From an uncultured Chloroflexia bacterium (lineage in GTDB: Bacteria > Chloroflexota > Limnocylindria > QHBO01): a stretch of 64,000 bases of DNA. A program made the position numbers and the translations under genes. The notes under the pieces are model-generated. The model saw only the letters and a program-made list of their open reading frames with translations, was not told the DNA's origin and ran no database searches. Below are positions 7,949 to 26,876 of the stretch, in pieces. Numbering within the stretch: position 1 is the stretch's first letter; every line of letters begins with the position of its first letter. The DNA lies in NCBI GenBank assembly GCA_963812115.1, contig CAWEUD010000043.1, positions 123,535 to 187,534 of the forward strand, read 5' to 3'.

Positions 7949-8032
7949 GCGGATCCGGTCCGGACGGCGCCCCAGCCCGCGAGGTCATGGCCGCGCGGTT
8001 GGCGAACGCGCTGCCTGCCACCCGCCAGCGCC

Positions 8033-8230: not shown

Positions 8231-8239
8231 CATCTCCGC

Positions 8240-8314: not shown

Positions 8315-8405
8315 ATTCCGCAACTTGGGCCCGCGGCGACGGCCGACGCCACGTCCGCCCACGCAGTCCTGCGCTCCTAGCGGTCGCCGGCGGCGGGGAC
8401 GCCCG

Positions 8406-10586
8406 TCACTTGAGCGCCACGACCTCCAGGTCGCCCTTCCGCCGGAGGATGCGGACGATCGCACCCACGGCCTGCTGCTCGAGCTCCAGGTCGATCGAGG
8501 CATCGGCTACCCGCAGACCTGCGATGCGCAGGGAATCGAGGAATGGCGGGAGCACGGCGTGGCGGAAGCGCACCTGCCGGCGCGCGGCGTCGATCTCCAG
8601 TCCAATGGCGGCCTGCAGCAGCATGAATACTGCTCCCGCCGACCACGCCTGCGGAGAGCAGGCAACGGGGTACCGAGTGGGTCCTTCGTGCTCCCGACGC
8701 GAGAACCCGCAGAAGAGCTCCGGCAGGCGGCCGAGGTCGAAGTGGCGGGCGGCATCGAACATGTCGGACAGGATGCGAGCAGCAAGCTCGGGAAACCCGT
8801 AGCGCGAGAGCCCCAGCGCCACCAAGGCGTTGTCGTGCGGCCACACCGAGCCGTTGTGATACGACATCGGGTTGTAGCGGGCCGATCCCGCCGCCACGGT
8901 GCGGACCCCCCACCCCGAGTACGAGGCGGGGCCAGTGAGCGTTTCCGCCAGGCGTTCGGCGCGCTCGGGGAGCGCGATCTCGGTCAGCAGGGCGTGCCCT
9001 GCGTTCGACGCGACCACCCGGCAAGGCCGCTTCTCTCCGTCCAGCGCCAGGACGTAGGTACCCAGCTCGTCGTCCCAGAAGGCATCGTCGAACTGCCTCC
9101 GGAGGGCCTTTGCGCGGCTGCGCAACCCGCTTGCCTGGTCGGGGCGCCCGAGCGCCTCCCGGATCTCTGCGGCACCGAGGAGCGCGGCGTACGCATAGCC
9201 CTGCACCTCGCAGAGGGCGATAGGCCCTTCGGCAAGGCGCCCATCGGCATGGAAGACCGAATCGGCCGAGTCCTTCCAGCCCTGCTGCGAGAGCCCGGCA
9301 TCGGCAGAACGCCGGTACTCGAGGAAGCCGTCGCCGTCGGGATCGCCATCGGCATCCATCCATTCGAGGGCGCGCTCCACGTGCGGGAACAGGGCGTTCT
9401 GCAGATCCAGGTCCGCCGTCTGGCGGAGGTGGGCGGCTGCGAGCATCACGAACAGCGGCGTCGCGTCCTGGCTCCCGTAGTAGCGCCCGAATGGCACCTC
9501 TCCCAACGCCGCCATCTCGCCTTCCCGCAGCTCGTGCAGGATCTTTCCCGGCGCAGCGTCCCGCTCACGATCGACCGATGGGGCCTGGGTGGCCGCAAGG
9601 AATGAGAGGACGCCGCGCGCCAGGCGGGGCTGGGCCCAGAGGCACTCGAGCGCGGTGATCAGCCCGTCGCGGCCGAACGGCGTGCTGAACCACGGGATGC
9701 CGGCGTACGGATACGGCCCGTGCGCGGTTCGCGAGGTGAGCATCGCCAGGTCGCTGGTGCTTCGATCCAGCCAATCATTGAAAATCTCGTTCGAGCTGGT
9801 GATGCGCGTCGAGCGACCCAGGATTCGGTCGTTGTGGCGCCGGGCTCGCGCAGCAGCGGACTCCCAATCCCGGGCGGCATTGGCTCGCCGACCGGATTCG
9901 CAGCGCACCACCACGTCGATGGTGGTGGCCGCGGCGTCGCGCAACTCGAGCTCGAAGCGTGCATGGGACGCGTCCAGCTCGGCGGGCGCCGGCGAAAACG
10001 CGATAAGCGTGCGGCGATCCACCCCGTCGAGGCCCCGGTACCGAACCGAGACGGTGTCGGAAGTGGCCGTCTCCGACACGATCCGGCCGCGCCTCGCCCG
10101 GCGCAGACCCCGGACCTCGAAGATGTCGGCGAAGTCAGCCCCGAACAGCAGGAGCAGGTCCATGGAGATCGGCCGGCGGGCGAAGCTGCGCACCACGAGC
10201 CGCTCGTGGCAGGCGCCGTTGAGCAGGACCTTCGACCGGCCGACGTGGACCTGGTTATGCGCGACGGCATCGGTCCCGGCCTCGTAGTCCGCGTTGGTGA
10301 GGTCGATCGAGACGCGCGCGTTGTCGGAACGTGTCGTCGCACCGAGCAGGAGCGGTGGGTGGCCGCCGAGGCGCAGGACCAGCCCGGAGAGGTGGCGAGT
10401 CCCGCGGTGGTAGATCCCCCCCTCGCCGTACGGCGAGGGGCGGATGTCGCCGAACCGATCGAAGACGGCGAAGGAGTCCCCGTCCTTGAGGACCTGATCG
10501 TGCTCCCGGTCCTGGTCCGCAACGGCGAGAACGTCGTACCGTCGGCCGGCCTCCGACGCCTCGGGATCAGAGGGGAACCGCGTCAT
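8406..10586 (-). CDS. Amylo-alpha-1,6-glucosidase family glycogen debranching enzyme (GDE_N + GDE_C)
   Basis: Sequence resembles bacterial/archaeal-type glycogen debranching enzymes along its length. The start is trimmed to the internal ATG (MTRFPSDPEA), and the gene overlaps the upstream GT4 gene by about 20 nt. Confidence 0.85.
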   Translation of the reverse strand: MTRFPSDPEASEAGRRYDVLAVADQDREHDQVLKDGDSFAVFDRFGDIRPSPYGEGGIYHRGTRHLSGLVLRLGGHPPLLLGATTRSDNARVSIDLTNADYEAGTDAVAHNQVHVGRSKVLLNGACHERLVVRSFARRPISMDLLLLFGADFADIFEVRGLRRARRGRIVSETATSDTVSVRYRGLDGVDRRTLIAFSPAPAELDASHARFELELRDAAATTIDVVVRCESGRRANAARDWESAAARARRHNDRILGRSTRITSSNEIFNDWLDRSTSDLAMLTSRTAHGPYPYAGIPWFSTPFGRDGLITALECLWAQPRLARGVLSFLAATQAPSVDRERDAAPGKILHELREGEMAALGEVPFGRYYGSQDATPLFVMLAAAHLRQTADLDLQNALFPHVERALEWMDADGDPDGDGFLEYRRSADAGLSQQGWKDSADSVFHADGRLAEGPIALCEVQGYAYAALLGAAEIREALGRPDQASGLRSRAKALRRQFDDAFWDDELGTYVLALDGEKRPCRVVASNAGHALLTEIALPERAERLAETLTGPASYSGWGVRTVAAGSARYNPMSYHNGSVWPHDNALVALGLSRYGFPELAARILSDMFDAARHFDLGRLPELFCGFSRREHEGPTRYPVACSPQAWSAGAVFMLLQAAIGLEIDAARRQVRFRHAVLPPFLDSLRIAGLRVADASIDLELEQQAVGAIVRILRRKGDLEVVALK

Positions 10587-11727: not shown

Positions 11728-11908
11728 ATCCCCCTGGTCAGCTCCATGCGGTTCGGCGATGAGGCGTATGGCATGGCGCGTGCCAGTTGCATCGCGTCGC
11801 GCGAGAGGACCGCCCCGATCCCGTGGTAGCCTTCGACGGCGACCCGGTCACGGTCTCGCACCCACGTCGGACCGCGCTCATTCGCCCCCGAAGGCCGAGG
11901 AAGACTGT

Positions 11909-13217
11909 CGTGCCCCACGTCCCAATCGAACGACACCAGCTGAGGAACGGGCTGCGCGTCGTGCTCTCACGCGGCGACCTGGCGCCGATCGTGGCGGTGA
12001 ACCTGTGGTACGACGTCGGCAGCAAGCACGAGAAGGCAGGCAAGACGGGGTTCGCCCACCTCTTCGAGCACATGATGTTCCAGGGCTCCGAACACGTCGC
12101 CAAGGGTGAGCACTTCGCCCTGGTGCAGGCCGCGGGAGGGACGCTCAACGCATCGACCTGGCTCGACCGCACCAACTACTTCGAGACGCTCCCGAGCCAC
12201 GAGCTGGAGCTCGGGCTCTGGCTCGAGGCTGACCGCCTCGCCTCGCTGCTGCCGGCGATGACCCAGGACAAGCTCGACAACCAGCGCGAGGTCGTCAAGA
12301 ACGAGCGCCGCTGGTCGGTCGACAACCAGCCGTACGGGACCTGGGACGAGAAGATCCAGGAGCTCGTCTACCCGGACGGGCATCCCTACCACCACTCGAC
12401 CATCGGCTCCATGGACGATCTCGACGCGGCGAGCCTGAGGGATGTCTCCGACTTCTTCGCGACGTACTACGCCCCGAACAACGCCGTGCTCACCGTGGCC
12501 GGCGACTTCGAGCCGGTCGCCGCCCTGGCGATGATCGAACGACACTTCGGACCGATCCCCGCCAACGCCTCGCTGCCGCCTGCCCCAGCCATGGAGGTGA
12601 CCCCACGCATCGGGCGTGAAGTTCGGGAGGTCGTCCACGACCGGGTCCCGCTTCCGCGCGTCTATCTCGCCCACCGCATGCCGGTCTTCGGCACCGATGA
12701 GTTCGAGGCGCTCATGGTCGCCGCCGATCTGCTCGGCTCCGGTCGTGCCTCGCGGATGTACCGCAGTCTCGTCAGGGAGCGGCAGCTGGCTGGCGACGTC
12801 AGCGTCTTTCCCTTCCCGATCGTGGGCGGTGCGTCGATGTTCACGCTCTGGGCCACGGCGCGCGAGGGCATCGAGGCCGATGCGCTCGAGGCCGCCCTGC
12901 TGGCCGAGATCGACCGCCTCGCGGCCGATGGTCCGTCCGACGAGGAGCTGGAGCGCGTCCGCAACCTCCATGCAGCGTCGGTGGAGTCGAGCCTGGAGCG
13001 GATCGCGGAGCGGGCCGATCGGATCTCGATGTACACCTGCCTCTTCGACGATCCGGACCGCATCAACAGCGAGGTGAGCCGCTACCTGGCGGTCGATGCG
13101 GAACGGGTCGTGGACGCGATGCGCGAGACGCTTCGGCCAGACAACCGGCTGGTCCTGACCTACCTGCCCGTCGCCGCGGAGCCGGGCGAGATACGTTCCG
13201 AGGAGGTGGTCACATGA
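11909..13217 (+). CDS. M16 family zinc peptidase (insulinase-like; active subunit with HxxEH)
   Basis: Inverted zinc-binding motif HLFEHMMFQG. The start is set at a GTG preceded by GAGGAAG. The N-terminus of the longer ORF 11787.. is low complexity. Confidence 0.85.
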
Positions 13218-14569
13218 GCCTGGCACCCAATCCGCTGCGGCCGACGCCAGGTGCACCGCGGCCGTATCGCTTCCCGGAATTCGACCGACGTCGGCTGCCG
13301 AACGGCCTGACGGTCTGGTCGGTCTCACTTCCCGGCGCCACCATGGTCAACGCTCACCTGCTGGTCGACGGCGGCGCTGCGGCGGAAGACGAGGAGCACG
13401 CGGGCGTCGCCTATCTGACCGCTCAGATGCTCACCACCGGAACGCGGCGACTCGACGCGTCCGCCTTCGCCGAGGCGACCGAGCGGCTGGGGATCGAGGT
13501 CAGCTCCGAGTCCAGCTGGGACTCCGCGCGGGCGGCGTTCCAGTCACTCCCCGAGCACCTGGAGGAAGGCTTTGGGCTGCTCGCAGAGATGATCCTGGAG
13601 CCCCGGTTCGACCCCGCGGAATTCACGCGGCTGAAGGCGGAGCGGCTGAACGACATCCTCCAGTCGCGGGCGGATCCCGGGCGATTGGCCGAGGAGATGT
13701 TCCTGCGCCACGTCTTCGATCCCGAGACCCCCTACCGGCGGCTCTCGGCCGGCACGCCGGAGAGCATCGCCGCCGTCACCCTCGACGACGTGCGAGCGCA
13801 CCACGCGGCGCACTGGCAACCGGGACTCGCGCACCTGATCGTGGCCGGAGCGGTCGATCCGGAGACGATCGAACGGCTGGCGCAGATGCGGCTCGGCGCC
13901 TGGGATGGCACCGGACCGGGGCATCGGACCTTCGAGACGCGGCCGGCCGGCGGCCGCCGGGTGGTCATCGTCGACCGTCCCGGTTCGGTCCAGAGCGAGC
14001 TGCGCATGGGGCATCCGGGCATCTCCCGCACATCGGATCGCTACTTCCCGGCCATGGTCATGGCGGCCATGCTCGGCGGCGTCTTCGGCTCGCGGCTCAA
14101 CATGCGACTTCGCGAGGAACTCGGCTACACCTACGGCGCCCGCGCGGGGTTCGATGCGCGCCGCGCGGCCGGTCCCTTCTCTGCAGCGGCCGCCGTGCAG
14201 ACCGAGGTGACCGCCGATGCGATGCGCGAGATGTTCGCGCAGCTGGAGCGGGTCAGGGCGGCCGCTCCGGAACTCGCGGAGCTTCGCGAGGTCCGTGACT
14301 TCCTGATCGGTGTGTTCCCGCTCCGCTTCGAGACGACCGGCGGTGTCGCCACGGCCATCGAGCCACTCGCCATCTACGGGCTGCCCGACGACTACTGGCA
14401 GACCTATCGTCGGCAGATCGAGGCGGTCGGACCGGACGACGTCGCCGCGGCCGCGCGGGACCTCATCCGTCCCGACGCTCTCCTCATGCTGGTGACCGGC
14501 GACGCCGCGCGCATTCGGGACGAGATCGAGGCCGCGCAGCTCGCCGAGGTGGAGGTGGTCAGCGCCTGA
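13214..14569 (+). CDS. M16 family peptidase, non-catalytic partner subunit (no HxxEH)
   Basis: 451 aa, M16-like throughout. ATGA overlap with the upstream M16 gene. Confidence 0.8.
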   Translation: MSLAPNPLRPTPGAPRPYRFPEFDRRRLPNGLTVWSVSLPGATMVNAHLLVDGGAAAEDEEHAGVAYLTAQMLTTGTRRLDASAFAEATERLGIEVSSESSWDSARAAFQSLPEHLEEGFGLLAEMILEPRFDPAEFTRLKAERLNDILQSRADPGRLAEEMFLRHVFDPETPYRRLSAGTPESIAAVTLDDVRAHHAAHWQPGLAHLIVAGAVDPETIERLAQMRLGAWDGTGPGHRTFETRPAGGRRVVIVDRPGSVQSELRMGHPGISRTSDRYFPAMVMAAMLGGVFGSRLNMRLREELGYTYGARAGFDARRAAGPFSAAAAVQTEVTADAMREMFAQLERVRAAAPELAELREVRDFLIGVFPLRFETTGGVATAIEPLAIYGLPDDYWQTYRRQIEAVGPDDVAAAARDLIRPDALLMLVTGDAARIRDEIEAAQLAEVEVVSA

Positions 14570-14581
14570 CGCGCACCCGCT

Positions 14582-16039
14582 TCAGGCGTCGTCGCGTCGC
14601 GGCCATCGGAGCAGGAACACCGCCGCCGGCGCGCGCTCCTCGAGCCGGACGATGCCACCCTGCGCCTCCATGGCGGCGCGGACGAGGTACAGGCCCAGGC
14701 CAAGGCCGCGACCGGAGTTCACGCGCTCGATGAAGAGGTGCTCCGCGACGTCGTCGCTCACCCCTGGGCCGGCGTCCCGCACCCGCAGCTCCGGTGCCAC
14801 GCCACTGCTGATCTCGACCGCGATCGGCTCGCCGTCGGTGGAGTAGCGATCGGCATTGGTGAGCAGGTTGGTGAGCGCCTGCTGGGTCAGCTGGAGATCG
14901 CCGACGACCAGCGGCTCGCCGCTGACGCTGATCTCCACCTCGCGGTCACTGCCGCTCGCCCGCAGCCGCTCCACGGATGCGGACGCGGCCTCCCGCAGGT
15001 CGAATGGCTGCAGATCGGCCTCGAGGCGGCCGGCCTCGGCGCGGGAGAAGAGCTCGAGGCGGTCGAGGATGGCGATGGCCGCGTCGACCGACTCCAGCGC
15101 GCGCTGGGCGTGCGACGAGGCGCCGGAGACGGCCGTGGTCGCGCGCGCGCCCAACTCGATGCGGGCCTTGGCCACGGCCAGCGGGTTCCGCAGCTCGTGG
15201 GCGACGAAGCTCGCGAAGCGAGAGAGTCGGCGGCGTTCGTCGACCTCCTTGCCGACATCTCGGAGGAGCAGCACGCAACCGCCGTCGGGGACCGGCGTCC
15301 CCTCGACGTCGACCAGCAGGTCCTTCCCGGACATCGGTAGGCGAATGATCATGCGGCGCCTGGTGACGGCGTCCCGGGCTTGCACCTGCGGCCAGTCGTC
15401 CATCGACAGCGGTTGCCCACGGTCGTCGCGCGGTTCCGCGAGACGACCCCACTCGTCCAGGGGACGGTCGTAGAAGCTGCGGCCGAAGGTGCGCAGCGCG
15501 GCGCGGTTCGCGTAGGTTCCCCTTCCATCGGCGGCGTAGACGATGAGCGGCTCCGGGATCGCCTCGGCCACCTCCTCGAGCCGCGTGCGCTCTCGCTCGA
15601 CCTGCTGCAGCGCGTTCTGCAGATCGCGTCGCGCCTCGTCGGCGGCGCTCCGCTCGCGATTCGCCATCTGCTCGGCGGCGACACTCATGTCCCGGGCCAG
15701 CCGGCTCTCGGTGTGCTGGCGCTCAGCGCGCATGGCCAGCAGGACGATCATCGGCGCGCCGACGACGAACAGGGTCACGCGCGCCAGGTTGGCAGCGCTC
15801 ACCAGCTCGTTCTGGACGACGATCCCCTGGGCGATCAGCGACCCGCCAGCGATGGCGTAGGTCGTGACGGCGGCGGCCGGTCCCAGCGTCAGACCGACGA
15901 GCGCGACCGCGAGCAGCGGCAGCACGGCGAACGTCGACTCCCCTGTCATCTCACCGAGCACCGCCCCGCCTGCGGCGGCCAGGGCGCCAAAGGCCACCCC
16001 GGTCAGGATGCGACCGACGCCGGTGCCGCCCAGGCTCAC
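14582..16039 (-). CDS. Sensor histidine kinase: multi-TM N-terminus, coiled coil, PAS-like, HisKA, HATPase
   Basis: C-terminal HisKA motif (FASFVAHELRNPL) and HATPase motifs (N box LTNLLTNADRY, G boxes). The proposed start is a GTG at 16039 that overlaps the TGA of the upstream J-domain gene (GTGA). The 330-aa Arg/Ala-rich extension of ORF ..17038 is rejected because it overlaps the J-domain CDS. No response regulator is adjacent. Confidence 0.8.
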   Translation of the reverse strand: MSLGGTGVGRILTGVAFGALAAAGGAVLGEMTGESTFAVLPLLAVALVGLTLGPAAAVTTYAIAGGSLIAQGIVVQNELVSAANLARVTLFVVGAPMIVLLAMRAERQHTESRLARDMSVAAEQMANRERSAADEARRDLQNALQQVERERTRLEEVAEAIPEPLIVYAADGRGTYANRAALRTFGRSFYDRPLDEWGRLAEPRDDRGQPLSMDDWPQVQARDAVTRRRMIIRLPMSGKDLLVDVEGTPVPDGGCVLLLRDVGKEVDERRRLSRFASFVAHELRNPLAVAKARIELGARATTAVSGASSHAQRALESVDAAIAILDRLELFSRAEAGRLEADLQPFDLREAASASVERLRASGSDREVEISVSGEPLVVGDLQLTQQALTNLLTNADRYSTDGEPIAVEISSGVAPELRVRDAGPGVSDDVAEHLFIERVNSGRGLGLGLYLVRAAMEAQGGIVRLEERAPAAVFLLRWPRRDDA

Positions 16040-17238
16040 GGCGAGGAGGCTCCGACCGCGGCCAGCTCCTGCCTGCCGTCGCGGCGACGCGCCTCGCGCT
16101 GCTGCCGGACGCGAGCACGGGCAAGGCGCTGCCGCGCGGCCCCGATGCGTCGGATCGGGTCTCCACCGATGCGCCGCCGATCGAGCGCCTCCGGATGCTC
16201 CCCGCGCGCAATCGCCGCCAGCAGCTCGGAGGCCCGGTCGAGCTGCCCCGCTTCGGTCAGCAGCTGCACCACGCTGAACCAGCGCGAGGCTTCGCGCACG
16301 GGCTCCCGACTGACCCGTTCCACGAGCTCGGCGGCGCGGCCGGGGTGGCCGGCACGACGGTGGGCGGAGATCGCTGCCCGGACGTCGGGGAAGCTGGCCT
16401 CCATCCCGAGCGCCTCGACGAAGTTCAGCAGCAGCTCCGCCGCCTCCGCCCGGTCCTCGGGCCTGCCGCGGCGCACGCGCTGGTCGCGGAACTCGGCGAG
16501 GAGAGCGCGCAGCTCGCGATCGACCCAGCGACGCGGAGGGCTCTCGGGCGTATACCGCTGCGCCATCTCCCGAAGGAAGCCCACGCCCCGCAGGTACGAG
16601 CCAGTGAACACGTACGCCTGGCGCATGCCGGCGCGGACGAGCGTCTCGTAGCCGCCGTCCAGGCGGAGCAGGCGCTCGAGCGTCCCCAGCCAGTCGTCGT
16701 AGCGGCCGCGTTCGCGATAGTACCCGGCTGCGTAGCGCAGCCAGTAGTGCTCGGCATGCTCGCGCCAGTCCTCGCCGGCGATGTGGTGTTCCACGATCCA
16801 GGCGCCCTGCTGCGCCGGGCCGGCCATGAAGACGTCGGCCGGGACCCGGAAGCCGGCCACGTTCCGCCACTGCGGCTGGTGCCAGCGGCTCGGCCGATCG
16901 GGCTGGATGAGTCGCGGCCGGGCGCGCGCGCGGGACGGCTCGTGGGGCTCGAGTGGCCATGGCAGCGTCGCTGCCTGTCCGCGCTCCAGGGCGTGATCGT
17001 AGTGCAGCCGGCGCAGGGGGTCGCGCAGCTCCGCCCACGCGCGGTTGAGGATCGACGTTCGCCGCGTCGCGAGGCCACCGGCAGTGCTGCGATCGGGATG
17101 GTGCCGCAGGACCGCCTCGCGGAACGCGCTCCGCAGCTCGTCGACGGTCGCGGACGGCTCGGCCCCCAGCACAGCGTAGAAATCGCGCTGCTCGAGCTGC
17201 GCGTCCCGACCCTCGTCGCCCACGGATCCACCGACCAT
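16036..17238 (-). CDS. J-domain (DnaJ N-terminal domain) protein with a large alpha-helical/TPR-like C-terminal domain
   Basis: J-domain signature DFYAVLGAEPSATVDELRSAFREAVLRHHPDR near the N-terminus. The ATG at 17238 is internal to the longer ORF 16036..18069, whose upstream part is antisense to cphB. About 400 aa. Confidence 0.7.
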   Translation of the reverse strand: MVGGSVGDEGRDAQLEQRDFYAVLGAEPSATVDELRSAFREAVLRHHPDRSTAGGLATRRTSILNRAWAELRDPLRRLHYDHALERGQAATLPWPLEPHEPSRARARPRLIQPDRPSRWHQPQWRNVAGFRVPADVFMAGPAQQGAWIVEHHIAGEDWREHAEHYWLRYAAGYYRERGRYDDWLGTLERLLRLDGGYETLVRAGMRQAYVFTGSYLRGVGFLREMAQRYTPESPPRRWVDRELRALLAEFRDQRVRRGRPEDRAEAAELLLNFVEALGMEASFPDVRAAISAHRRAGHPGRAAELVERVSREPVREASRWFSVVQLLTEAGQLDRASELLAAIARGEHPEALDRRRIGGDPIRRIGAARQRLARARVRQQREARRRDGRQELAAVGASSP

Positions 17239-17304
17239 CGGATGAGCATACGACGCCCGCTCCACGTTCGCCTCGCCACCGCCATTGGGTATGCTGCCGG
17301 GCAC

Positions 17305-18297
17305 ATGGCCGCCCAGTCTCGCCCCGGCCGTGCCCGCGCCGGGCACCTGCTGATCATCGGAGGCGCGGAGGACAAGCTGCGTCAGCGGCAGATCCTCTCC
17401 CGCTTCGTCGCGCTCGCCGGCGGCGGCGACGCGCGTATCGCGGTCATCTCGACGGCATCCTCCCTCGGCGACGAGGCGACCGACCTCTACCAGTCGCTCT
17501 TCCACCAGATGGGCGTTCCCGACGTCCGCGGCCTCCGCCCCCTGACCCGCGACGAGGCGAATGACGCAGAGGTCTGCGGTGCCCTCGACGACGCGACGGG
17601 AATCTTCATGACCGGCGGCAACCAGCTTCGCCTCTCGAGCGTGATCGGGGGCACGGCGCTCGGACGCGCCATCGTGGAACGGCACCGGCGCGGCTGCATC
17701 GTGGCGGGCACCAGCGCCGGCGCCTCGGCGATCAGCAGCCATATGGTCGCCTTCGGTACCAGCGGGCCGACCCCGAAGCAGCGCATGACGCAGATGAGCG
17801 CGGGACTGGGGCTCCTGCCGGGCGTGATCATCGACCAGCACTTCGAGCAGCGGAACCGCCTTGGACGCCTGCTCGCCCTGGTGGCCCAGTCGCCCGCCCT
17901 GCTGGGGATCGGCATCGACGAGGACACGGCAGCCCTCGTGTCGCCCGCGGGCGTGGTGGAGGTCATCGGCAAGGGATCGGTCATGATCCTCGACCCGGCC
18001 CGGATCCAGACCGATGCCTACGAGGTCAAGCGCCATCGACCGATGATGATCAGTGGCGTGGTCCTCCACTCACTGCCTTCAGGCTACCGGTTCGACCTGC
18101 GCAAGCGTCGCCTGCTGGCGCCGCTGCGTCCGGTCTCGGCCAGCGAGCGGGAGCTCGCCCAGCTAGACCGTGCCGGCGCGGTCACGCGTCGGCTCATCCG
18201 CCGCATCGCCGCGGAGGGCGCGGACGATACGGCCCCCGAGCGCGCCCGGCGTCGCGAGCTCTACGCTCGTCGCAAGGAAGAGGAGGCGAGCGAGTGA
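17305..18297 (+). CDS. cphB: Cyanophycinase (peptidase S51)
   Basis: 330 aa from the ATG at 17305 with S51 cyanophycinase motifs (HLLIIGGAED, IAVISTASS, catalytic-Ser region GTSAGASAI). The upstream part of ORF 16195..18297 is antisense to the J-domain gene. Confidence 0.85.
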   Translation: MAAQSRPGRARAGHLLIIGGAEDKLRQRQILSRFVALAGGGDARIAVISTASSLGDEATDLYQSLFHQMGVPDVRGLRPLTRDEANDAEVCGALDDATGIFMTGGNQLRLSSVIGGTALGRAIVERHRRGCIVAGTSAGASAISSHMVAFGTSGPTPKQRMTQMSAGLGLLPGVIIDQHFEQRNRLGRLLALVAQSPALLGIGIDEDTAALVSPAGVVEVIGKGSVMILDPARIQTDAYEVKRHRPMMISGVVLHSLPSGYRFDLRKRRLLAPLRPVSASERELAQLDRAGAVTRRLIRRIAAEGADDTAPERARRRELYARRKEEEASE

Positions 18298-21134
18298 CAT
18301 CGGGCCGCTCGCGCTCGAAGACGCCGAGGCCGATCTCGCGTGCCTCGGTCGCCAAGGCCGAAGCCGGGAAAGGGCGGCGCGCGCGGTCGTCGCCGGCGGC
18401 GAGCCTGCGCATCCTCGAGACGCGCGTCTACCGCGGCCCGAACTACTGGAACTACGAGCCCGCGATCAAGCTCATCGTCGACCTGGGCGTGCTCGAGGAC
18501 TTCCCTTCCAACACGATTCCCGGCTTCGTCGACGGCCTGCTCGACATGCTCCCCGGCATCGGGCAGCACTCGTGCTCCACGGGCAAGGCGGGGGGCTTCG
18601 AGCAGCGGCTGCGCGAGGGAACGTGGGCCGGGCACGTTGCCGAGCACATCGCCCTGCAGCTGCAGCGCGACGCAGGCACCGAGGTTGGTCGTGGCAAGAC
18701 CCGCAGCACCGGGGAGCCCGGACGCTACCACGTCGTCTACTCGTACGCGGAGGAGTCCGTCGGCCTGGCAGCCGGTCGCCTCGCCGTCCGAACCGTCAAC
18801 CACCTCGTCGAACCCGACCCCGACTTCGACTTCGTCGCCGATTTCGAGCGGCTCGTCCTGCTCGCCGAGCGCGCTGCGTTCGGACCCTCGACGCAGTCGA
18901 TCCTGGACGAGGCCGCGCTGCGCGACATCCCCTCCATTCGGCTCAACGAACAGTCGCTCGTGCAGCTGGGCCACGGGGTCCACCAGCGCCGGATCCGCGC
19001 CACCATGACCAGCCAGACCAGCTCGCTGGGCGTCGACATCGCGTCGGACAAGAAGCTGACGAACAAGCTGCTCGGCGGCGCCGGCGCCCCCGTGCCGCGC
19101 GCCAAGGTCGTGGGCAGCGAGGAGGACGCAGTCGCGGCGGCGATCAGCATCGGCTTCCCGGTGGCGGTCAAGCCGCTCGACGGCAACCACGGGCGCGGCG
19201 TCATGCTGAACCTGTCCGACGAGGGCGCCGTGCGAGCCGGCTACGCACACGCTCGCTCGGAATCGCGCCGCGGCGGCGTGGTGGTCGAGACGTTCCTGGC
19301 AGGCAATGACTACCGCTGCCTCGTCGTCGGCGGCACGCTGCGAGCGGTGGCACAGCGGGTGCCGGCCCACGTCGTCGGCGACGGCGAGCACTCGCTGAGC
19401 GAACTGGTCGAGCAGACCAACCTCGACCCGCGACGCGGCATCGGCCACGAGAAGGTCCTGACCCGAATCAAGGTCGACGAGGAATCGATCTCCTACGCCC
19501 GCGAGCAGGGGTTCGAGCTGAGTGACGTGCCCCCGCGCGGCGTCCGTGTCTTCCTCAAGCGCACCGGCAACATGAGCACCGGCGGGATCAGCATCGACCG
19601 GACAGAGGAGATCCACCCCGACAACGCCGAGATCGCCGAGCTGGCCGCGCGGGTGGTCGGGCTCGACATTGCCGGCATCGACTTCATCTGTCCGGACATC
19701 AGCGTCCCGGTGCGGGAAACCGGCGGCGGGATCGTCGAGGTCAATGCGGCGCCCGGGTTCCGGATGCACACCCACCCGACCGAGGGCGAGGCGCAGTACG
19801 TGGCCAAGCCGGTCATCGACATGCTCTTCCCGCCGGGTTCGCCATCGCGGATCCCGATCGTGGCGGTCACCGGCACGAACGGCAAGACGACGACGGCCCG
19901 GATGATCGCCCACGTCATGAAAGGCATGGGCCGCAAGGTCGGCATGACCTCCACCGATGGGATCTTCGTGGACGGACGGCCGGTGCGACGTGGTGACATG
20001 TCCGGGCCGCGCTCCGCCTCGACCGTGCTGCAGAACCCGAACGTCGACTTCGCCGTCTTCGAGGTGGCACGCGGCGGCATCCTGCGCGAGGGCCTCGGCT
20101 ACCAGCGCAACGACGTGGCGGTCGTCCTCAACGTGACCGGCGACCACCTTGGGCTGGGCGGGATCACCTCGCTGCGGCAGCTCGCCGCGGTGAAGCAGGT
20201 GGTCGTGGAGGCGGTCCCCCGCGACGGCGTGGCGGTGCTCAACGCCGACGACCCGCTGGTTGCGCCGATGGGGCGCCACTGCTCCGGCTCGGTGATCTAC
20301 TTCAGCATGAACGCCGAGAACGAGCTGGTGCGCCGTCAGGCCTCGCGCGGCCGGCGTGCCGTCACCCTCGAACCCGGTCACAACGGGGAGATGATCGTCC
20401 TGCGCCAGGGCCGCAAATCGATGCCGCTGGTCTGGACCCACCTCCTGCCGGCGACCTTCGAGGGCAGGGCGCGCATGAACGTCCAGAACGCACTTGCGGC
20501 GACGGCCGCGGCGTGGGCCGCCGGGGCACACCTGCACGACATCCGACAGGGCCTGCGGACCTTCACGACCAGCTACTTCATGGCGCCCGGCCGCCTCAAC
20601 GTGTTCGAGCTGGACGGCTACCGCGTGGTCGTCGACTACGCCCACAATCCGCCGGCGGTCGCGGCACTGGGAGAGTTCGTCGATTCGATGGCCAGGCCGT
20701 CGCCGGGTGGCAGCCGGCCGCTGGTGACGGGACGGCGGATCGGCGTCATCGCCACCGCGGGCGACCGGCGGGACGAGGACATCGTGGAGCTCGGCAGGAC
20801 GGCCGCGCGCTACTTCGACACGATGATCGTCCGCGAGGACGCCAATAGCCGCGGCCGCGCGCCCGGCGATACGGCTGCGCTGATCGAACGCGGCGCGCGC
20901 GAGGCGATGAGCGACGGAGCCCGCTGCGCGGAGGTGACCACCATGCTCGATGAGCTCGAAGCCACCCGCCACGCCCTGGACATGGGATCCGAGGGCGACA
21001 TCGTGGTGGTCTGCGTCGACCACGCCAACGACGTCTGGAAGGAACTGCAGCATCGACAGCACGGCGGATCGAGCGCTGGTGCCCCGGGCTTCCGGGCAGT
21101 GACCGGCCTCGCCGAGTCGGAGGTCGAGCTCTAG
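18294..21134 (+). CDS. cphA: Cyanophycin synthetase CphA (complete N, ATP-grasp G and Mur-ligase M domains)
   Basis: 946 aa: N domain (LRILETRVYRGPNYWNYEPAIKLIVDL), ATP-grasp (AVKPLDGNHGRGV, EVNAAPG), M domain P-loop VTGTNGKTTTARM. The GTG start overlaps the cphB stop (GTGA) and is preceded by GAGGAGG. Confidence 0.9.
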   Translation: MTSGRSRSKTPRPISRASVAKAEAGKGRRARSSPAASLRILETRVYRGPNYWNYEPAIKLIVDLGVLEDFPSNTIPGFVDGLLDMLPGIGQHSCSTGKAGGFEQRLREGTWAGHVAEHIALQLQRDAGTEVGRGKTRSTGEPGRYHVVYSYAEESVGLAAGRLAVRTVNHLVEPDPDFDFVADFERLVLLAERAAFGPSTQSILDEAALRDIPSIRLNEQSLVQLGHGVHQRRIRATMTSQTSSLGVDIASDKKLTNKLLGGAGAPVPRAKVVGSEEDAVAAAISIGFPVAVKPLDGNHGRGVMLNLSDEGAVRAGYAHARSESRRGGVVVETFLAGNDYRCLVVGGTLRAVAQRVPAHVVGDGEHSLSELVEQTNLDPRRGIGHEKVLTRIKVDEESISYAREQGFELSDVPPRGVRVFLKRTGNMSTGGISIDRTEEIHPDNAEIAELAARVVGLDIAGIDFICPDISVPVRETGGGIVEVNAAPGFRMHTHPTEGEAQYVAKPVIDMLFPPGSPSRIPIVAVTGTNGKTTTARMIAHVMKGMGRKVGMTSTDGIFVDGRPVRRGDMSGPRSASTVLQNPNVDFAVFEVARGGILREGLGYQRNDVAVVLNVTGDHLGLGGITSLRQLAAVKQVVVEAVPRDGVAVLNADDPLVAPMGRHCSGSVIYFSMNAENELVRRQASRGRRAVTLEPGHNGEMIVLRQGRKSMPLVWTHLLPATFEGRARMNVQNALAATAAAWAAGAHLHDIRQGLRTFTTSYFMAPGRLNVFELDGYRVVVDYAHNPPAVAALGEFVDSMARPSPGGSRPLVTGRRIGVIATAGDRRDEDIVELGRTAARYFDTMIVREDANSRGRAPGDTAALIERGAREAMSDGARCAEVTTMLDELEATRHALDMGSEGDIVVVCVDHANDVWKELQHRQHGGSSAGAPGFRAVTGLAESEVEL

Positions 21135-22744
21135 CTGCCGGCAGCCGCCACCAACTCGCCCAGCTGCTGTGGCGGGACCGCGTTGAATCCCTCGTCTCCG
21201 AGCCAGGAGAAGATTTCGCCGCGCTCGACGTGCGACATGACCGCCACGAGGTCTCCGCGCCGGGACCGCGAGAGCAGCGCCTGCAGCGCGGACAGCTCGC
21301 TGGGATGGGCCGGCATCTCGTCGCGGTAGCCGCCGTCGGCAGCACCGCGACGGAAGATCTCGTTCATCGCCTCCAGGTCCCGCCCGCGCAGGTAGTGACG
21401 CTTCTCGCAGATGACGACATCGTCGGCCCCCTGGCCGGCCAGCCGACCCAGGTTGTGCAGGACCTCATCGGTCCTGTCGCCGGCCGTGCCGAGCGCGAGC
21501 CGAACCTGACCGCGGCCGCCGACCAGCCCGCGGCAGACCTCCAGCAGCCCACGCAGCCCCGCTTCGTTGTGGGCGAAGTCGATCAGGACCAGCAGGCCAC
21601 CCCGCTCGTAGAGGTTCATCCGGCCCGGGTTGGCGACGCTGTCCTGGGTAAAGGTGCGCAGTCCCGCCCGGATCCGCGCCGGACGAATGCCCAGGGCGTC
21701 AGCCCCCGCAGCGGCAGCCAGCGCATTCGCCACGTTGTAGGTCGAGAGCCCGCCGAAGGTGACCGGTATCTCTGCCAGCGGAGCCAGCCGCAGGGGACGC
21801 CTTGCGCCGCGCAGCAGGGTCAGCCAACCGTCCTTCAGCACGGCGGCGCGACCGCCCGCTTCGAGCGCCTGGCGCACACCGTCCGCTTCCGGAGAGAGAC
21901 TGAACGCGTAGCGGGCAGCCCTCGTCCAGCGGCGCATCGCCCAGACCCGCTCGTCCTCCGCGTTGAGTACGGCCCACCCACTGCGCCGCGTGATGCGGAC
22001 GATGGCGCCCTTCACCTCGGCCAGCTCGTCGAGCGTGTCGATGCCCTGCAGTCCCAGGTGGTCGGCGCTCACGTTCGTGACGATGGAGACGTCGTTGGCG
22101 CCGTAGCCGATGCCGCGCAGGAGGATGCCGCCGCGCGCCGTCTCGAGGACGGCGAGGTCGATCCCATCCTCGGCCAGGACGCGACCGGCGCCACCGAAGC
22201 CGGTCCAGTCCCCCGCCTCCACCAACTTCCCGTCGACGAAGATGCCGTCGGAGTTCGTCATCCCAACCCGCCTGCCCGCCGTGGTGGCAATGTGGGCCAG
22301 CAGTCGGGTGGTCGTGCTCTTGCCGTTGGTCCCGGTGATCGCCACGATCGGCACGCGTGCCGCGGGGAGGCTCGGGAGCGGACCGAGCGCCATCGCCCGC
22401 AGGCCCCGCAGCTCGCGCCGTTCGCTGCTGGCACCCGCTGCGATGCGGGCCGCGGATGCCCCGACCGCCTGGGAGATCGTCCGCCGATGCCAGGGGTAGG
22501 CCACCAGGGCCCGCCGGCCGTCCGCAGATCCGCGCCGCGCGATGCGCGGCACGGGCAGGTCCAGGAGCGCGTGAAGACGCTGGACGGCCTCACCGGCGGC
22601 GACGCTCGTCTCGTCCGCCAGACCGGGCTCGATGGCGCCGAACTCGAGCTTGATCGCCGGCCGCCTGAAGAACCGGTTGGGGCCGTCGAGGACGCGCAGT
22701 TCCAGGAGCTCCACGTCGCCGTCCGAGCGCCCGTCCTGCGGCAT
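21131..22744 (-). CDS. Cyanophycin-synthetase-like Mur ligase family protein lacking the ATP-grasp domain (CphA N domain + M domain only)
   Basis: The N-terminal segment LELRVLDGPNRFFRRPAIKLEF parallels the CphA N domain. It is followed directly by the Mur-ligase P-loop ITGTNGKSTT, then DHLGLQ and a C-terminal Mur ligase domain. There is no ATP-grasp motif. The start is ambiguous (22744 MPQDG vs 22792), so coordinates are +/-1 to 48 nt. Convergent with cphA. Confidence 0.75.
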   Translation of the reverse strand: MPQDGRSDGDVELLELRVLDGPNRFFRRPAIKLEFGAIEPGLADETSVAAGEAVQRLHALLDLPVPRIARRGSADGRRALVAYPWHRRTISQAVGASAARIAAGASSERRELRGLRAMALGPLPSLPAARVPIVAITGTNGKSTTTRLLAHIATTAGRRVGMTNSDGIFVDGKLVEAGDWTGFGGAGRVLAEDGIDLAVLETARGGILLRGIGYGANDVSIVTNVSADHLGLQGIDTLDELAEVKGAIVRITRRSGWAVLNAEDERVWAMRRWTRAARYAFSLSPEADGVRQALEAGGRAAVLKDGWLTLLRGARRPLRLAPLAEIPVTFGGLSTYNVANALAAAAGADALGIRPARIRAGLRTFTQDSVANPGRMNLYERGGLLVLIDFAHNEAGLRGLLEVCRGLVGGRGQVRLALGTAGDRTDEVLHNLGRLAGQGADDVVICEKRHYLRGRDLEAMNEIFRRGAADGGYRDEMPAHPSELSALQALLSRSRRGDLVAVMSHVERGEIFSWLGDEGFNAVPPQQLGELVAAAGS

Positions 22745-22767
22745 GGCCGGCAGTATACTCACGCGCC

Positions 22768-23928
22768 ATGCCGATCCCGCCGGACCTGCCACAGGCCGTC
22801 AGGGCCCGATACCCGCGCTACCTGGCGGAGCTCGAATCCCTGGTCAACGTCGACTGCGGCTCGCACACGCCGCCTGGCGTCAATCGCATCGCGGATGCGG
22901 TGGCCGAGTCCCTCGCAGAGCTTGGAGCGAGCGTGGAGCGCCGCTCGCCGGAGCCCGGGCAGCCCCTCGGAGATCTCGTCATCGGCCGCCTCATCGGCGA
23001 GGGCTCCCGACTGCTGCTCATCGGCCACATGGACACGGTCTTCGAGCCCGGGACGGTGGCCGAGCGGCCGTTTCGGGTGGAGGGCGAACGGGCGCTCGGT
23101 CCGGGCACGAGCGACATGAAGGGCGGGCTGCTGGCGGGCCTGCACGCGGTGGCTGCGCTGCACGAGATCGGCATCCGGCCGACCATCACCTTCGTCGCGA
23201 ATCCGGACGAGGAGATCGGCTCGCCGTTCAGCACGCCGCACATCCGCGAACTGGTCCCCGAACACGATGCCGCACTGGTGCTCGAGTGTGCCCGGGCCAA
23301 CGGCGATATCGTCAGCGCACGGAAAGGCATCGCAGACCTGGAGGTCACCTTCACGGGCCGGGCCGCGCACGCGGGCGTGGAGCCGGAGAAGGGACGCTCC
23401 GCGATCCTGGCGGCTGCGCGCCAGGTCGTGGCGCTCGAGGACCTCAACGGTCGATGGCCGGGCGTCACGCTGAACGCCGGCGTGATCCGTGGTGGAACGC
23501 GCCCGAACGTGGTCGCCGCCGAGTGCCGGCTGACGCTCGATCTGCGTGCCGCGGCCGCCGACGCCTTCGATGCGGCCATGGAGGAAGTCGAGCGGCTGCT
23601 GCACTCCCCCTCCGTCGACGGCGTGCATGTCGAGCTGCAACGGCTGGCCGCGCACCCGCCGATGGAGAAGTCGCCGGCCACGGCCCGGCTGGCCGACCTC
23701 GCGCACGGCCTCGCAGCCGAGCTCGGGTTCGACCTTCGCGATGCCGCGACCGGGGGAGCGTCGGACGCCAACACCACCGCGGCCGCGGGGCTGCCGACAC
23801 TCGACGGGCTGGGGCCGATCGGGGGCGACGATCACTCTGCCGACGAGTGGCTGGACCTTTCGAGCGTCGTCCCGCGCGTGACGCTCCTCGCGGCGCTGAT
23901 AGCGTCGGCGGAGCGGGCGCTGGCCTGA
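22768..23928 (+). CDS. M20 family metallopeptidase (carboxypeptidase G2 / glutamate carboxypeptidase-like)
   Basis: 386 aa. Metal-binding motifs HMDTV, PGTSDMKGG and NPDEEIGS, and a dimerisation domain. Divergent from the G-less cphA paralog, with starts about 25 nt apart. Confidence 0.85.
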   Translation: MPIPPDLPQAVRARYPRYLAELESLVNVDCGSHTPPGVNRIADAVAESLAELGASVERRSPEPGQPLGDLVIGRLIGEGSRLLLIGHMDTVFEPGTVAERPFRVEGERALGPGTSDMKGGLLAGLHAVAALHEIGIRPTITFVANPDEEIGSPFSTPHIRELVPEHDAALVLECARANGDIVSARKGIADLEVTFTGRAAHAGVEPEKGRSAILAAARQVVALEDLNGRWPGVTLNAGVIRGGTRPNVVAAECRLTLDLRAAAADAFDAAMEEVERLLHSPSVDGVHVELQRLAAHPPMEKSPATARLADLAHGLAAELGFDLRDAATGGASDANTTAAAGLPTLDGLGPIGGDDHSADEWLDLSSVVPRVTLLAALIASAERALA

Positions 23929-23978: not shown

Positions 23979-24428
23979 GTGAGCGATGACTTCCGCCACA
24001 GCACGCCCGTCCAGGTGCGGTTCCGCGACATCGATGCGTTCGGCCACGTGAACAACGCGGTCGTCTCCACCTACGTGGAGCTGGCGCGGGTAAGCTACCT
24101 GCGCGACGTGCTGAAGCTGGACCCGGTGGGGCCGCTGAACCGGATGCCGCTGATCCTGGGCATGATCAGGATCGACTACGAGTCTCCGATCTTCCTGGCC
24201 GACGCCGTGCAGGTCGGATCGCGCGTGGAGTGGATCGGCCGCAGCAGCATCTCGATGTCGCACCGGCTGGTTGCCGAATCCGGGCGCGACCTGGCGCGGG
24301 CGACATCGGTCCTGGTGGCGTACGACTACGGGCAGGCACGGCCCATGCCGGTGCCTGATGATTGGCGCACCGCGCTGGCCGCCCACGAGGGGCGCGCCCT
24401 GGAGCGCCCGCAGCAGGGAGAGGCATGA
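23979..24428 (+). CDS. Acyl-CoA thioesterase (hotdog fold, 4HBT/YbgC-like)
   Basis: 149 aa: RFRDIDAFGHVNNAVVSTYVELAR. GTG start. Its stop overlaps the lpd ATG (ATGA). Confidence 0.75.
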   Translation: MSDDFRHSTPVQVRFRDIDAFGHVNNAVVSTYVELARVSYLRDVLKLDPVGPLNRMPLILGMIRIDYESPIFLADAVQVGSRVEWIGRSSISMSHRLVAESGRDLARATSVLVAYDYGQARPMPVPDDWRTALAAHEGRALERPQQGEA

Positions 24429-25845
24429 CCGACGAGCGACGCTACGACCTCCTGATCCTCGGTGGCGGGATGAGCTACGTGGGCGCCATCCGCGCCGCCC
24501 AGCTCGGCCTGAAGGTGGGCCTCGTCGAGCGCGACGCGCTGGGCGGCACCTGCCTCAACCGCGGCTGCATCCCGTCGAAGGCGCTGCTCGAGACCGCCGA
24601 CCTGCTGCACCGGGTGACGGAGCAGGGCCACGAGTTCGGTCTCGCCGGCAGCGACGGCGTCTCCCTCGACTACGGCCCGCTCGGCGAGCGACGAGATGCG
24701 GTGGTCGAGAAGCACGTCCGCGGCGTCGAGTTCCTGATGAAGAAGAACGGCATCGACGTCCTGCACGGCCAGGGCACTCTCACCGGCCCGACCAGCGTGC
24801 GCGTCTCCGGGGGCGAGTCGGGCGAGCTCCAGGCGAGCGCCACCGACCTCATCCTGGCGACCGGCTCGGCGCCGCGCTCCCTGCCGGGACTGGAGCCGGA
24901 CGGCGAGCGGATCATCACCAGCGACGAGGCGCTCAAGCGCAACGACGTGCCGGCACGGGTGACGATCGTGGGGGCGGGCGCCATCGGCGTCGAGTGGGCG
25001 TCCATGTACCGCGACTTCGGCTCGGAGGTCACGCTGGTCGAGTTCCTGGACCGCGTGGTCCCCCTCGAGGACGCGGACGTCAGCAAGGAGCTGAACCGGG
25101 TCTTCCGCAAGCGCGGCATCGCGATCCACACCGCCTCGACGATCGACACCGAGAGCATCCAGCGCTCCGATGACGGGCTCACCTTCAGCGTCAAGGCCAA
25201 CGAGGGCGACAGGCGGACCGATGTAGGGGCGGACATCATCCTGGTGGCGGTCGGGCGCCGACCGCTGACCGATGAGCATCGGCCTGGAGCAGATCGACGG
25301 CCTGCAGATGGAGCGCGGCTACGTCAAGGTCGACGAGTACATGCGGACCGGCGTCCCGCACCTCTACGCCATCGGCGACATCGTGCCGGGCTTCGCCCTG
25401 GCGCACGTGGCGGCGCACGAGAGCGTGGTGGCGGTCGAGACGATCGCCGGGCACGACCCGGAGCCGGTCCGCTCGGACCTCATGCCGCGGGTCACCTTCT
25501 GCCGGCCGCAGATCGGCAGCGTGGGCCTGACCGAGGCAGAGGCGCGCGAGGCCGGCCACGAGGTGAAGACCGGCCAGTTCCCGTTCCGGGCGCTCGGCAA
25601 GGCGACCATCGTCGGCGAGATCGACGGCTTCGCCAAGTTCGTGGCCGATGCGGGCACCGGGATGCTGCTGGGCGCGCACATCATCGGCGCCGCACGCCGG
25701 CGACCTGCTGCCGGAGCCGACCCTGGCGCTGCTGGTGGAGGGGACCGCGGCCGAGATCGCCATGAGCGTCCACGCCCACCCGACGCTCCCCGAAGTCCTG
25801 GCCGAGGCCGCCATGGCGGTCGACGGCGACGCGATCCACGTCTAG
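24425..25845 (+). CDS. lpd: Dihydrolipoyl dehydrogenase (E3), with two apparent +1 frameshifts (about 25283-25290 and 25690-25700)
   Basis: The N-terminus (MTDERRYDLLILGGGMSYVGAIRAAQLG...GGTCLNRGCIPSK) is in frame 2, the middle (GIGLEQIDGLQMERGYVKVDEYMRTGVPHLYAIGD) in frame 3, and the C-terminus (HAGDLLPEPTLALLVEG...HAHPTLPEV) in frame 1. Confidence 0.8.
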
Positions 25846-25861
25846 GAGAAGGAGGCAGGCA

Positions 25862-26876
25862 GTGGCAACCACCGACACCAGGGCCCGCCACCTCGAGCTC
25901 GGCCTGACCGACGACGACGTGCTCGACATGTACCGCACGATGCTGCTGGCACGGGCCGTCGACGAGCGGATGTGGCTCATGCAGCGTGCCGGCAAGATCG
26001 CCTTCATCATCTCGGGCCAGGGCCACGAGGGGGCGCAGGTCGCCACCGCCTGGCCGCTGCGCAAGAACCAGGACTGGATGGCGCCCGTACTACCGCAGCA
26101 TCGCGTCGACGATCGCGTTCGGGATGAGCGCGGAGGACATCATCACCGCCCACCTGGCCAAGGGAGACGACGTCAGCTCCGGCGGACGCCAGATGCCGGG
26201 CCACTACGGGGCCGCGCCGTTCAACATCGTCAGCCTCTCGTCGCCGGTCGGGACGCAGGTCCTGCACGCGGTCGGGATGGCCATGGGTGCCTGGGTGCGC
26301 GGCGACGACGTGGTGGCGCTCACGACCTACGGCGAGGGGACCAGCAACCAGGGCGAGATCCACGAGGCGATGAACTTTGCCGGCGTCCACAGGCTGCCGG
26401 TCATCTTCGTCTGCGAGAACAACGGCTACGCGATCAGCGTCCCGCTCGAGAAGCAGGTTGGCGGGATGAGCGTGGCGGCGCGGGCGCAGGGCTACGGATT
26501 CCCGGGTGTTCGGGTCGACGGCTCGGACCCGCTGGCCTGCTACGCGGCCGCCAAGGATGCCCACGAGCGGGCACGTCGCGGTGATGGGCCGACCCTGATC
26601 GAGGCGCGGGTGGTCCGCCTGACCAGCCACTCCTCGGACGACGACCAGCGCCGCTACCGTGACCCCGCCGAGGTCGAGGCGCTCAAGGAGCAGGATCCGC
26701 TGGCGCGCTTCGGCGCGCAGCTGCGGAGCGCCGGCATCCTGGACGACGAGCGCGAGGACGAGCTTCGCGCGCAGATCAAGGCGGCGGTCAACGACGCCAG
26801 CCGTCGGGCGGAGGCGCGCCCGGAGCCCGATGTCTCGCAGGCCGCACGCCACGTGTACGCGGACGGGGAGGCCTGA
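25862..26876 (+). CDS. 2-oxoacid dehydrogenase E1 component alpha subunit (PDH/BCKDH-type), with a +1 frameshift near 26084-26087
   Basis: Frame 2 gives MATTDTRARHLELGLTDDDVLDMYRTMLLARAVDERM...NQDWMAP. Frame 3 continues YYRSIASTIAFGMSAEDII...TYGEGTSNQGEIHEAMNFAG (the TPP-binding region). There is an extra nucleotide inside gcgcccgtac. Confidence 0.8.

Follow-up and report, generated by a model that had tools for sequence, protein, structure and literature searches.

What can a relative of the cyanophycin synthetases do when it has no domain to lengthen the chain? The question is raised by a gene in a 64,000-nucleotide stretch of DNA from an uncultured Chloroflexia bacterium (hereafter, the window; contig CAWEUD010000043.1 of assembly GCA_963812115.1), where it faces a complete cphA gene in convergent orientation. 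In CphA1, the synthetase that cphA encodes, the G domain adds Asp at the chain end, and the M domain phosphorylates the new side-chain carboxylate and attaches Arg. An initial annotation of the window described the facing gene as encoding a segment like the CphA N domain and a complete M module, with no ATP-grasp domain, an architecture that is borne out by parsing with Pfam and TIGR02068 and by comparison of profiles with hhalign. The gene and its product are here called the N-M gene and the N-M protein, for a CphA-type N domain and M module without ATP-grasp, and the prefixes Su and Te denote the residue numbering of SuCphA1 and TeCphA1. Having N and M only, the protein could carry out just the second of the two half-reactions. 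The reading favored here, with a rough probability of 0.55, is that it acts in trans as a side-chain ligase on cyanophycin-type chains, and that it would consist of a stripped N domain and a complete, apparently active M module.

Domain architecture of the N-M protein

Pfam matches the N-M protein at two domains and nowhere else. These are Mur_ligase_M at residues 152-362 (66.1 bits; cutoff 24) and Mur_ligase_C at residues 390-520 (43.6 bits; cutoff 28.4), in the numbering of the 553-residue open reading frame, and both pass their gathering scores. The protein is a member of the Mur ligase superfamily, and MurE and other Mur ligases (PDB 1E8C, 2WTZ) are among the closest known systems. TIGR02068, the CphA1 model, gives 379 bits over model positions 476-848 only and does not reach its curated cutoff of 850, while the MurE models give about 100 bits and the MurT scores are 31.9 and 20.4 bits (NCBIfam cutoff 800). 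The protein also falls short of the TIGR01085 cutoff for MurE and has neither the UDP-binding N-terminal domain nor the DNPR/DNPA motif of that enzyme. By BLASTP, it shares 42% identity with the window CphA over the whole M module. Judged by this identity and by the score of 379 bits against about 100 for MurE, the ligase module is CphA-type and not that of a generic Mur ligase. The MurE/MurT-like alternative, which the initial annotation had named as a finding that would overturn it, thus gives way to a CphA-type assignment, with which the hhalign resemblance of the N domain agrees. An AlphaFold2 (AF2) model of the protein (predicted local distance difference test score, pLDDT, 83; predicted template modeling score, pTM, 0.79) has CphA1 M domains as its top Foldseek matches, with E values of 1e-34 to 1e-35, compared with 1e-20 for MurE. 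Among the models that match the protein, neither Pfam nor NCBIfam offers one dedicated to the family.

The ATP-grasp domain is absent by several independent lines. The window CphA, which scores 1154 bits on TIGR02068, has Pfam matches to the Cyanophycin_syn N domain, RimK, ATP-grasp_5, CPSase_L_D2, Mur_ligase_M and Mur_ligase_C; although three of these are of the ATP-grasp type, Pfam finds no such match in the N-M protein. A scan of one genome per species identified 172 relatives, of which the best 80 were taken for comparison of loci. In each of these 80 loci, tblastn with the CphA G domain matched the cphA gene only. A cryptic G domain, hidden by an undetected frameshift, was also looked for, and is excluded because stop codons close the N-M frame, a divergent M20 metallopeptidase gene occupies the DNA upstream, and the relatives listed are almost all 533-600 residues long. 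Where CphA1 (TIGR02068; PDB 7LG5, 7WAC, 7LGM, 7LGN) has a G domain of about 330 residues, the N-M protein has a short linker, after which its sequence, aligned to the window CphA, resumes exactly at the lead-in of the CphA1 M domain, P-x-R-[IV]-P-I-V-A-[VI]-T-G-T-N-G-K. A protein without G would be unable to extend the Asp backbone.

The N-terminal resemblance to the CphA N domain appears to be real but weak. BLASTP aligns residues 29-60 of the N-M protein (553-residue numbering) with residues 40-80 of the window CphA (E = 0.001). Comparison by hhalign of 29 family N regions with 66 CphA1 N domains, the latter drawn from four PDB enzymes, the window CphA and the CphA1 of related loci, gave probabilities of 95.5-96.6% and P values of 1.4e-8 to 5e-10 over 105-125 columns, against a P value of 0.5 for the reversed control. 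The best conserved part of this stretch is a GPNRFF or GPNLFL loop; with its GPN motif removed, the remainder aligned in the same register (P 4e-4). In SuCphA1, the counterpart of this loop (G11-I17) packs against the M domain (PMC9262961). The parallel between the two N-terminal segments that had been drawn from the sequence is supported by hhalign, but it is incomplete: the segment has no Pfam match, and about 35 residues of the CphA1 N domain are missing. Both the Cys and the HxxEH helix are lost with them, and thereby the Cx19HxxEH metallopeptidase site, which is the source of primers in most CphA1s. There is no Cys and no HxxEH in the N region of the N-M protein, in which the helix at that position reads GEAVQRLHALL. 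The best explanation is a stripped CphA N domain that would serve as a polymer anchor, without the peptidase site. A charge reversal of the N domain for binding of bare poly-Asp was considered as well and rejected, as the N regions of most family members carry a negative charge (-6 to -19), as do those of CphA1; neutral or basic ones occur in Limnocylindria and Actinomycetota-type members only.

Family, phylogeny and linkage to cphA

The best 80 of the 172 relatives are 64-91% identical to the N-M protein and come nearly all from metagenome-assembled genomes (MAGs) of Candidatus Limnocylindria or Chloroflexota. In the closest locus among them, L001, the N-M protein is 91% and CphA 96-97% identical. 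Protein searches added more than 200 further clusters of similar lengths beyond the 172, and one of these searches, seeded with distant members, gave at least 120 clusters, nearly all of 540-600 residues, from Thermomicrobiales, Chloroflexia and Actinomycetota MAGs. A metagenome scan with generic patterns returned mostly CphA1 and MurE, with family members in six of 80 loci. None of the named relatives listed has a cultured host, all being from uncultured genomes, and the family is common in abundant soil and freshwater lineages of this kind (Limnocylindria, Thermomicrobiales, Actinomycetota). Its members are annotated as “Mur ligase family protein,” “Mur ligase,” “hypothetical protein” or, by the Joint Genome Institute (JGI), “cyanophycin synthetase.” The last label is misleading for N-M proteins, and surveys of cphA that depend on annotation may be inflated by it.

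The lowest identity within the family is 37%, comparable to the spread of the sampled CphA1 M domains. In a neighbor-joining tree of M modules, rooted with 14 other Mur ligases, the N-M family and CphA1 form a clade in 200 of 200 bootstraps. The CphA1 M domains, taken from cyanobacteria, gammaproteobacteria, Chloroflexota and Actinomycetota, are monophyletic in 199 of the 200, and the N-M family in 131. The tree, a rough one built from distances and limited in its sampling, places the family as sister to all sampled CphA1 M domains. Such a position outside the sampled CphA1s would mean that the split predates their divergence and is not a recent local deletion. It also raises the possibility that N-M is the ancestral architecture, from which CphA1 would have arisen by insertion of an ATP-grasp domain. 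The ratio of nonsynonymous to synonymous substitution rates (dN/dS) against the closest ortholog is 0.15 for the whole protein (N part, 0.07; M part, 0.18), and these low values indicate purifying selection on both parts. Between the same pairs of genomes, the N-M protein evolves faster than CphA (65-75% versus 76-88% identity).

These data bear on one alternative, that the N-M gene is an artefact or a decaying remnant, either a cphA duplicate minus its G domain or a full-length gene broken by a frameshift. At least one apparent frameshift does occur elsewhere in the window, in a dihydrolipoyl-dehydrogenase-like (lpd-like) gene. Against this stand the number of relatives and further clusters at similar lengths, the dN/dS of 0.15, the retention of all catalytic residues, a family clade outside the sampled CphA1s, and the ATP-grasp query that finds the cphA gene alone in every locus, such that the alternative is effectively refuted. 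The N-M family is old and widespread, and not a local oddity.

The initial annotation had asked whether orthologs always co-occur with cphA and cphB. In 76 of the 80 Limnocylindria loci, the next gene downstream of the N-M gene is a complete, convergent cphA, the other four contigs ending just after the N-M gene, and cphB follows cphA wherever the contig reaches. Because this linkage alone could reflect inherited gene order, members less than 50% identical were examined too. Among the 14 of their loci with enough flanking sequence, 10 have cphA and cphB within 10 kb. The arrangement varies: cphA is directly convergent with the N-M gene in L086, L087, L089, L135, L136 and L170, convergent with a small open reading frame between them in L168, separated from it by an S8/S53 peptidase gene in L081, in tandem on the same strand in L093, and 8.8 kb away after rearrangement in L169. 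The linkage is seen in three deeply separated subgroups that differ in gene order, and its survival of rearrangement across phyla argues for a function shared with cyanophycin metabolism, though not an obligatory one. One MAG (MFD04944.bin.1.213) carries the locus twice (L012 and L013), with identical DNA upstream of the start and, in L013, fragmented cphA and cphB matches, a pattern pointing to either a duplicate in decay or an error of assembly.

Catalytic residues and proposed function

For the residues of the M module, clustering at 65% identity gave 25 family representatives, which were set against 13 CphA1 M domains. The two groups share the same residue, with conservation of 90% or more, at 60 positions, among them the P-loop K142, E201 (the Mg ligand E558 of TeCphA1), D228-H229 (Su D585/H586), K245, N261, N340, R375, D389/H392/N393, G422-D423-R424 and R453-G454-R455. 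The D585/H586 double mutation has been used to inactivate the M domain of SuCphA1 (PMC9262961), and the roles of these two residues and of Te K499, T500, T522 and E558 are described (PMC9427784; PMC9262961). As the catalytic set for ATP, Mg and the acyl-phosphate is intact, the N-M protein should be an active ATP-dependent amide ligase. In Mlid, CphA1 has GDRRD and the family GDR[TPSG]D. A change of GDRRD to GDRTD was dropped as a clean discriminator between the two, since the CphA1 of L086 has GDRSN, and the position is suggestive only. A family-like protein of 371 residues that matches the N-region profile (P0187) has the P-loop GTRGSRA, with its Lys lost, and represents a fragment or else a variant that is degenerate or inactive.

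The amine that is added is a separate matter. In MurE, the DNPR motif determines which amino acid is added. With MurE-like sequences in the alignment, this motif coincides with “[ED]-D-x-x-x-R-G-R” of CphA1 and “x-[TKS]-x-x-Y-L-R-G-R” of the family, and Su D801 falls on the Asp of DNPR. At this site, the Arg is kept in the N-M family, the invariant Asp of CphA1 is absent and an invariant Tyr is inserted. These replacements make Arg specificity doubtful, and they are taken as a sign that the family departs from CphA1 in the incoming amine or in how this is held. An Arg-adding or side-chain-decorating role on CphA polymer had been proposed for the gene at the outset; of this, side-chain ligation is the best supported part, through the catalytic residues and the gene linkage, whereas Arg addition is left unsupported by the replacement of D801, R778, D781, R566, S542 and D523.

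In the mechanism proposed, the N-M enzyme would phosphorylate a free Asp side-chain carboxylate with ATP and then ligate an amine to it, performing the M-domain half-reaction in trans. The chains would be supplied by the neighboring CphA1, and the preference for amine or acceptor may be other than that of CphA1, such that the amine added, or the exact acceptor, could depart from canonical Arg onto the C-terminal Asp. Since the M domain of the neighboring CphA1 is intact, the N-M gene is no patch for a dead domain. With an amine or acceptor of its own, the enzyme would tune or complete side-chain decoration instead of duplicating CphA1. An extension of this proposal, possible but tentative, makes the family a third, functionally distinct class of the cyanophycin type, a dedicated trans ligase that adds a residue other than Arg or decorates bare Asp on CphA1 chains. 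If so, the storage polymer of soil Chloroflexota and Actinomycetota would have a chemistry of its own.

Several observations count against a side-chain ligase acting on cyanophycin-type chains. The N domain is elusive to direct searches: Pfam finds no match to PF18921 in the N-M protein or in 10 distant members, even at E <= 1; a profile of the whole family matched the CphA1s among PDB sequences over the M module alone and not over N; and hmmsearch with an N-region profile against 1.84 billion representatives returned 108 matches with no canonical CphA1 of about 900 residues. The same hmmsearch uncovered distant full-length N-M members of 537-585 residues with the same Pfam content. In addition, the family has replaced nine residues that vary little or not at all in CphA1, namely Su D523, S542 (to Gly), R566 (to Leu, with the Arg shifted by one position), E607 (mostly to Arg), R767, R778, D781, F793 and D801, and through their loss the substrate could differ substantially from that of CphA1. 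A complete CphA1 is already present beside the N-M gene, with no evident need for an extra M module. Finally, no cphA lies within 10 kb in four of the 14 distant loci (L083, L084, L085 and L167), of which L084 probably has one just past the flank, by comparison with L169.

These four loci are the starting point for another explanation, by which the protein has moved out of cyanophycin metabolism to become a Mur-type ligase for some other carboxylate, for instance a peptide, a cell-envelope component or another polyamide, its proximity to cphA being historical. The specificity motif unlike that of CphA1 would fit, as would the recurrence of an M20 glutamate-carboxypeptidase-like gene as a neighbor. 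In L083, a metagenome contig of the European Nucleotide Archive (ENA), an M14 carboxypeptidase gene comes after the N-M gene in place of cphA, together with a complete oligopeptide/dipeptide ATP-binding cassette (ABC) transporter (12213-19454). Such a departure is nonetheless improbable, given the linkage to cphA-cphB in three deeply separated subgroups of differing gene order, the placement of the M module with CphA1, apart from 14 other Mur ligases, in every bootstrap, and the retention of a CphA-type N domain.

A small-molecule ligase has also been weighed, which would join free Asp or a short beta-Asp peptide to an amine, yielding beta-Asp-X dipeptides or primers for CphA1, or a separate metabolite. 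CphA1 requires a primer, minimally (beta-Asp-Arg)-Asp (PMC9262961), and the N-M protein has no primer-generating peptidase site of its own and differs from CphA1 in residues on the acceptor side (D523, S542 and the shifted R566). This role is considered unlikely, however, as the neighboring CphA1 carries Cx19HxxEH and is predicted to be primer-independent, and the N domain that has been kept, being polymer-anchoring, points to a polymeric substrate.

In a further alternative, the protein is an accessory subunit that forms a hetero-oligomer with CphA1 through Mcore contacts and raises the ratio of M to G sites or regulates polymerization. The Mcore of CphA1 contacts the Gcore of other protomers (PMC9427784), and the tight linkage to cphA and the conserved catalytic set would be in keeping with such a complex. 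A subunit of this sort is considered unlikely, as the N-M gene has its own conserved promoter, by prediction, and is convergent to cphA, evolves faster than cphA and is found in some loci without cphA nearby.

Among known systems, the tandem cphA/cphA' of Betaproteobacteria likewise have a second cphA-like gene beside cphA; to our knowledge, these copies are full-length N-G-M proteins. The side-chain ligase proposed here would find its mirror image in CphA2 (PDB 7TA5), in which N and an active G are kept with a truncated, inactive M, and which polymerizes beta-Asp-Arg dipeptides (PMC10273328); the N-M protein has instead a complete M and no G. In Tetrasphaera MAGs, two cphA copies of unequal length stand in series next to cphB, the shorter being expressed at a lower level (PMC10687191), and this shorter copy, compared by its description only, might belong to the N-M family. 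A full-text search of the cyanophycin literature gave two synthetase architectures, CphA1 (N-G-M) and CphA2 (N-G-truncated M), and no description of an enzyme of N and M only; older genome surveys lay outside its scope, and a passing mention is possible. The class is apparently undescribed, as the initial annotation had supposed. It would add the missing complementary form, in which nature separates side-chain ligation from backbone synthesis, and provide a simple system for the cooperation of N and M on polymer. For engineering of the composition of cyanophycin (solubility, Lys or other side chains), an M-type ligase that stands alone and has a changed specificity motif would also be of interest.

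Gene start, promoter and neighboring genes

The mechanical extent of the N-M open reading frame is 21131..22792 on the reverse strand, with 553 codons and a GTG start. Its codon-position G+C pattern is that of a real gene, in a window of about 70% G+C. The frame first reported is thus real, and only its start is revised: ATG 22744 is most likely the true one, because public protein collections hold the exact 537-residue product, without a name, and because a conserved TATACT lies 7 nucleotides upstream (Table 1). This hexamer, which reads CATACT in six loci, stands directly upstream of the ATG in 78 of 78 orthologous loci, with varying flanking bases and with the 7-nucleotide spacing in nearly all of them, as judged by eye. 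It is likely a conserved -10 box that would give a leaderless or near-leaderless mRNA. A scan of 20900-23000 by two-hexamer consensus found no full sigma-70 site, for which reason the box is put forward as a candidate. The divergent M20 ATG is only 21 nucleotides from the N-M ATG, so each promoter must sit within the opposite gene. At the other end, the stop codons of N-M and cphA overlap by 4 nucleotides (21131-21134). With this convergent overlap, and no terminator-like hairpin detected by a terminator scan of 20900-23000, the cphA and N-M transcripts would each run antisense into the other gene.

Table 1. Coordinates of the N-M gene, its parts and its neighbors in the window
Feature	Position	Strand	Description
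Two adjacent M16 (insulinase-type) peptidase genes and PAS histidine kinase gene	11763-17038		upstream of cphB
cphB (cyanophycinase)	17185..18297	+	start approximate; stop overlaps cphA start; Peptidase_S51
cphA (CphA1)	18294..21134	+	complete; N with Cx19HxxEH, ATP-grasp G, intact M; convergent with N-M gene
N-M coding sequence	21131..22744	-	537 residues from ATG 22744; stop 21131-21133
Mlid (Pfam Mur_ligase_C)	21233..21625	-	GDRTD; EKRHYLRGR where CphA1 “EDxxxRGR” / MurE “DNPR” stands
Mcore (Pfam Mur_ligase_M)	21707..22339	-	P-loop TGTNGKS 22316-22336, E201, D228-H229, K245
Linker replacing G	22349..22390	-	residues 119-132, 14 residues; AF2 pLDDT <50 at residues 119-126
Degenerate CphA-type N domain	22391..22717	-	residues 10-118; about 35 residues shorter than CphA1 N
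N-domain secondary structure			strands 11-19, 30-37, 69-72, 78-84; helices 42-60, 88-103, 108-118
GPNRFF loop	22667..22684	-	residues 21-26; counterpart of SuCphA1 hydrophobic loop G11-I17 (GPNYWSI)
TATACT, candidate -10 box	22752..22757	-	7 nucleotides upstream of N-M ATG
M20 metallopeptidase gene, glutamate-carboxypeptidase-like	22768..23928	+	ATG 22768; divergent from N-M gene

The cphB product scores 257 bits on TIGR02069 (cutoff 126.6). For the M20 protein, the best match is the glutamate carboxypeptidase model PRK06133, at 304 bits, under its 349-bit cutoff. Nearly all Limnocylindria loci with enough upstream sequence have the M20 gene beside the N-M gene, and it is found upstream also in L081 (5949-7181), L085 (6286-7506), L136 (~8020-9144) and L167 (1156-2349); it is a neighbor of the N-M gene in loci without a nearby cphA as well. 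In Actinomycetota-type loci, it stands in a block with XdhC-like and NTP-transferase genes. The M20 peptidase may be functionally tied to the N-M ligase. On the other side, most of the Limnocylindria loci long enough to include them also have the M16 pair and the PAS histidine kinase.

In L083, L084, L086, L169 and L170, the gene immediately upstream of the N-M gene, in the same orientation, encodes an Rce1-like (CPBP) intramembrane protease; the subgroup to which these loci belong has Thermomicrobiales/Chloroflexia MAGs as its named members. Four of the five loci have parB ahead of the protease gene, and in L083 other genes lie between.

Past the M20 gene of the window, a thioesterase gene is followed by a 2-oxoacid dehydrogenase cluster. 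The lpd-like gene (24362-25907) is split by an apparent frameshift near 25270-25290: the frame 24362..25765 covers Pyr_redox_2 profile positions 1-243, and that at 25272..25907, in another frame, covers positions 246-290 and Pyr_redox_dim. The split marks either a pseudogene or an assembly indel. The window CphA1 itself has a basic extension of about 35 residues (SRSKTPRPISRASVAKAEAGKGRRARS...; 18294-18410) ahead of its canonical N domain. A similar Lys/Arg-rich N-terminal extension is present in the Actinomycetota CphA1 of L081, and both proteins carry the Cx19HxxEH primer-peptidase motif.

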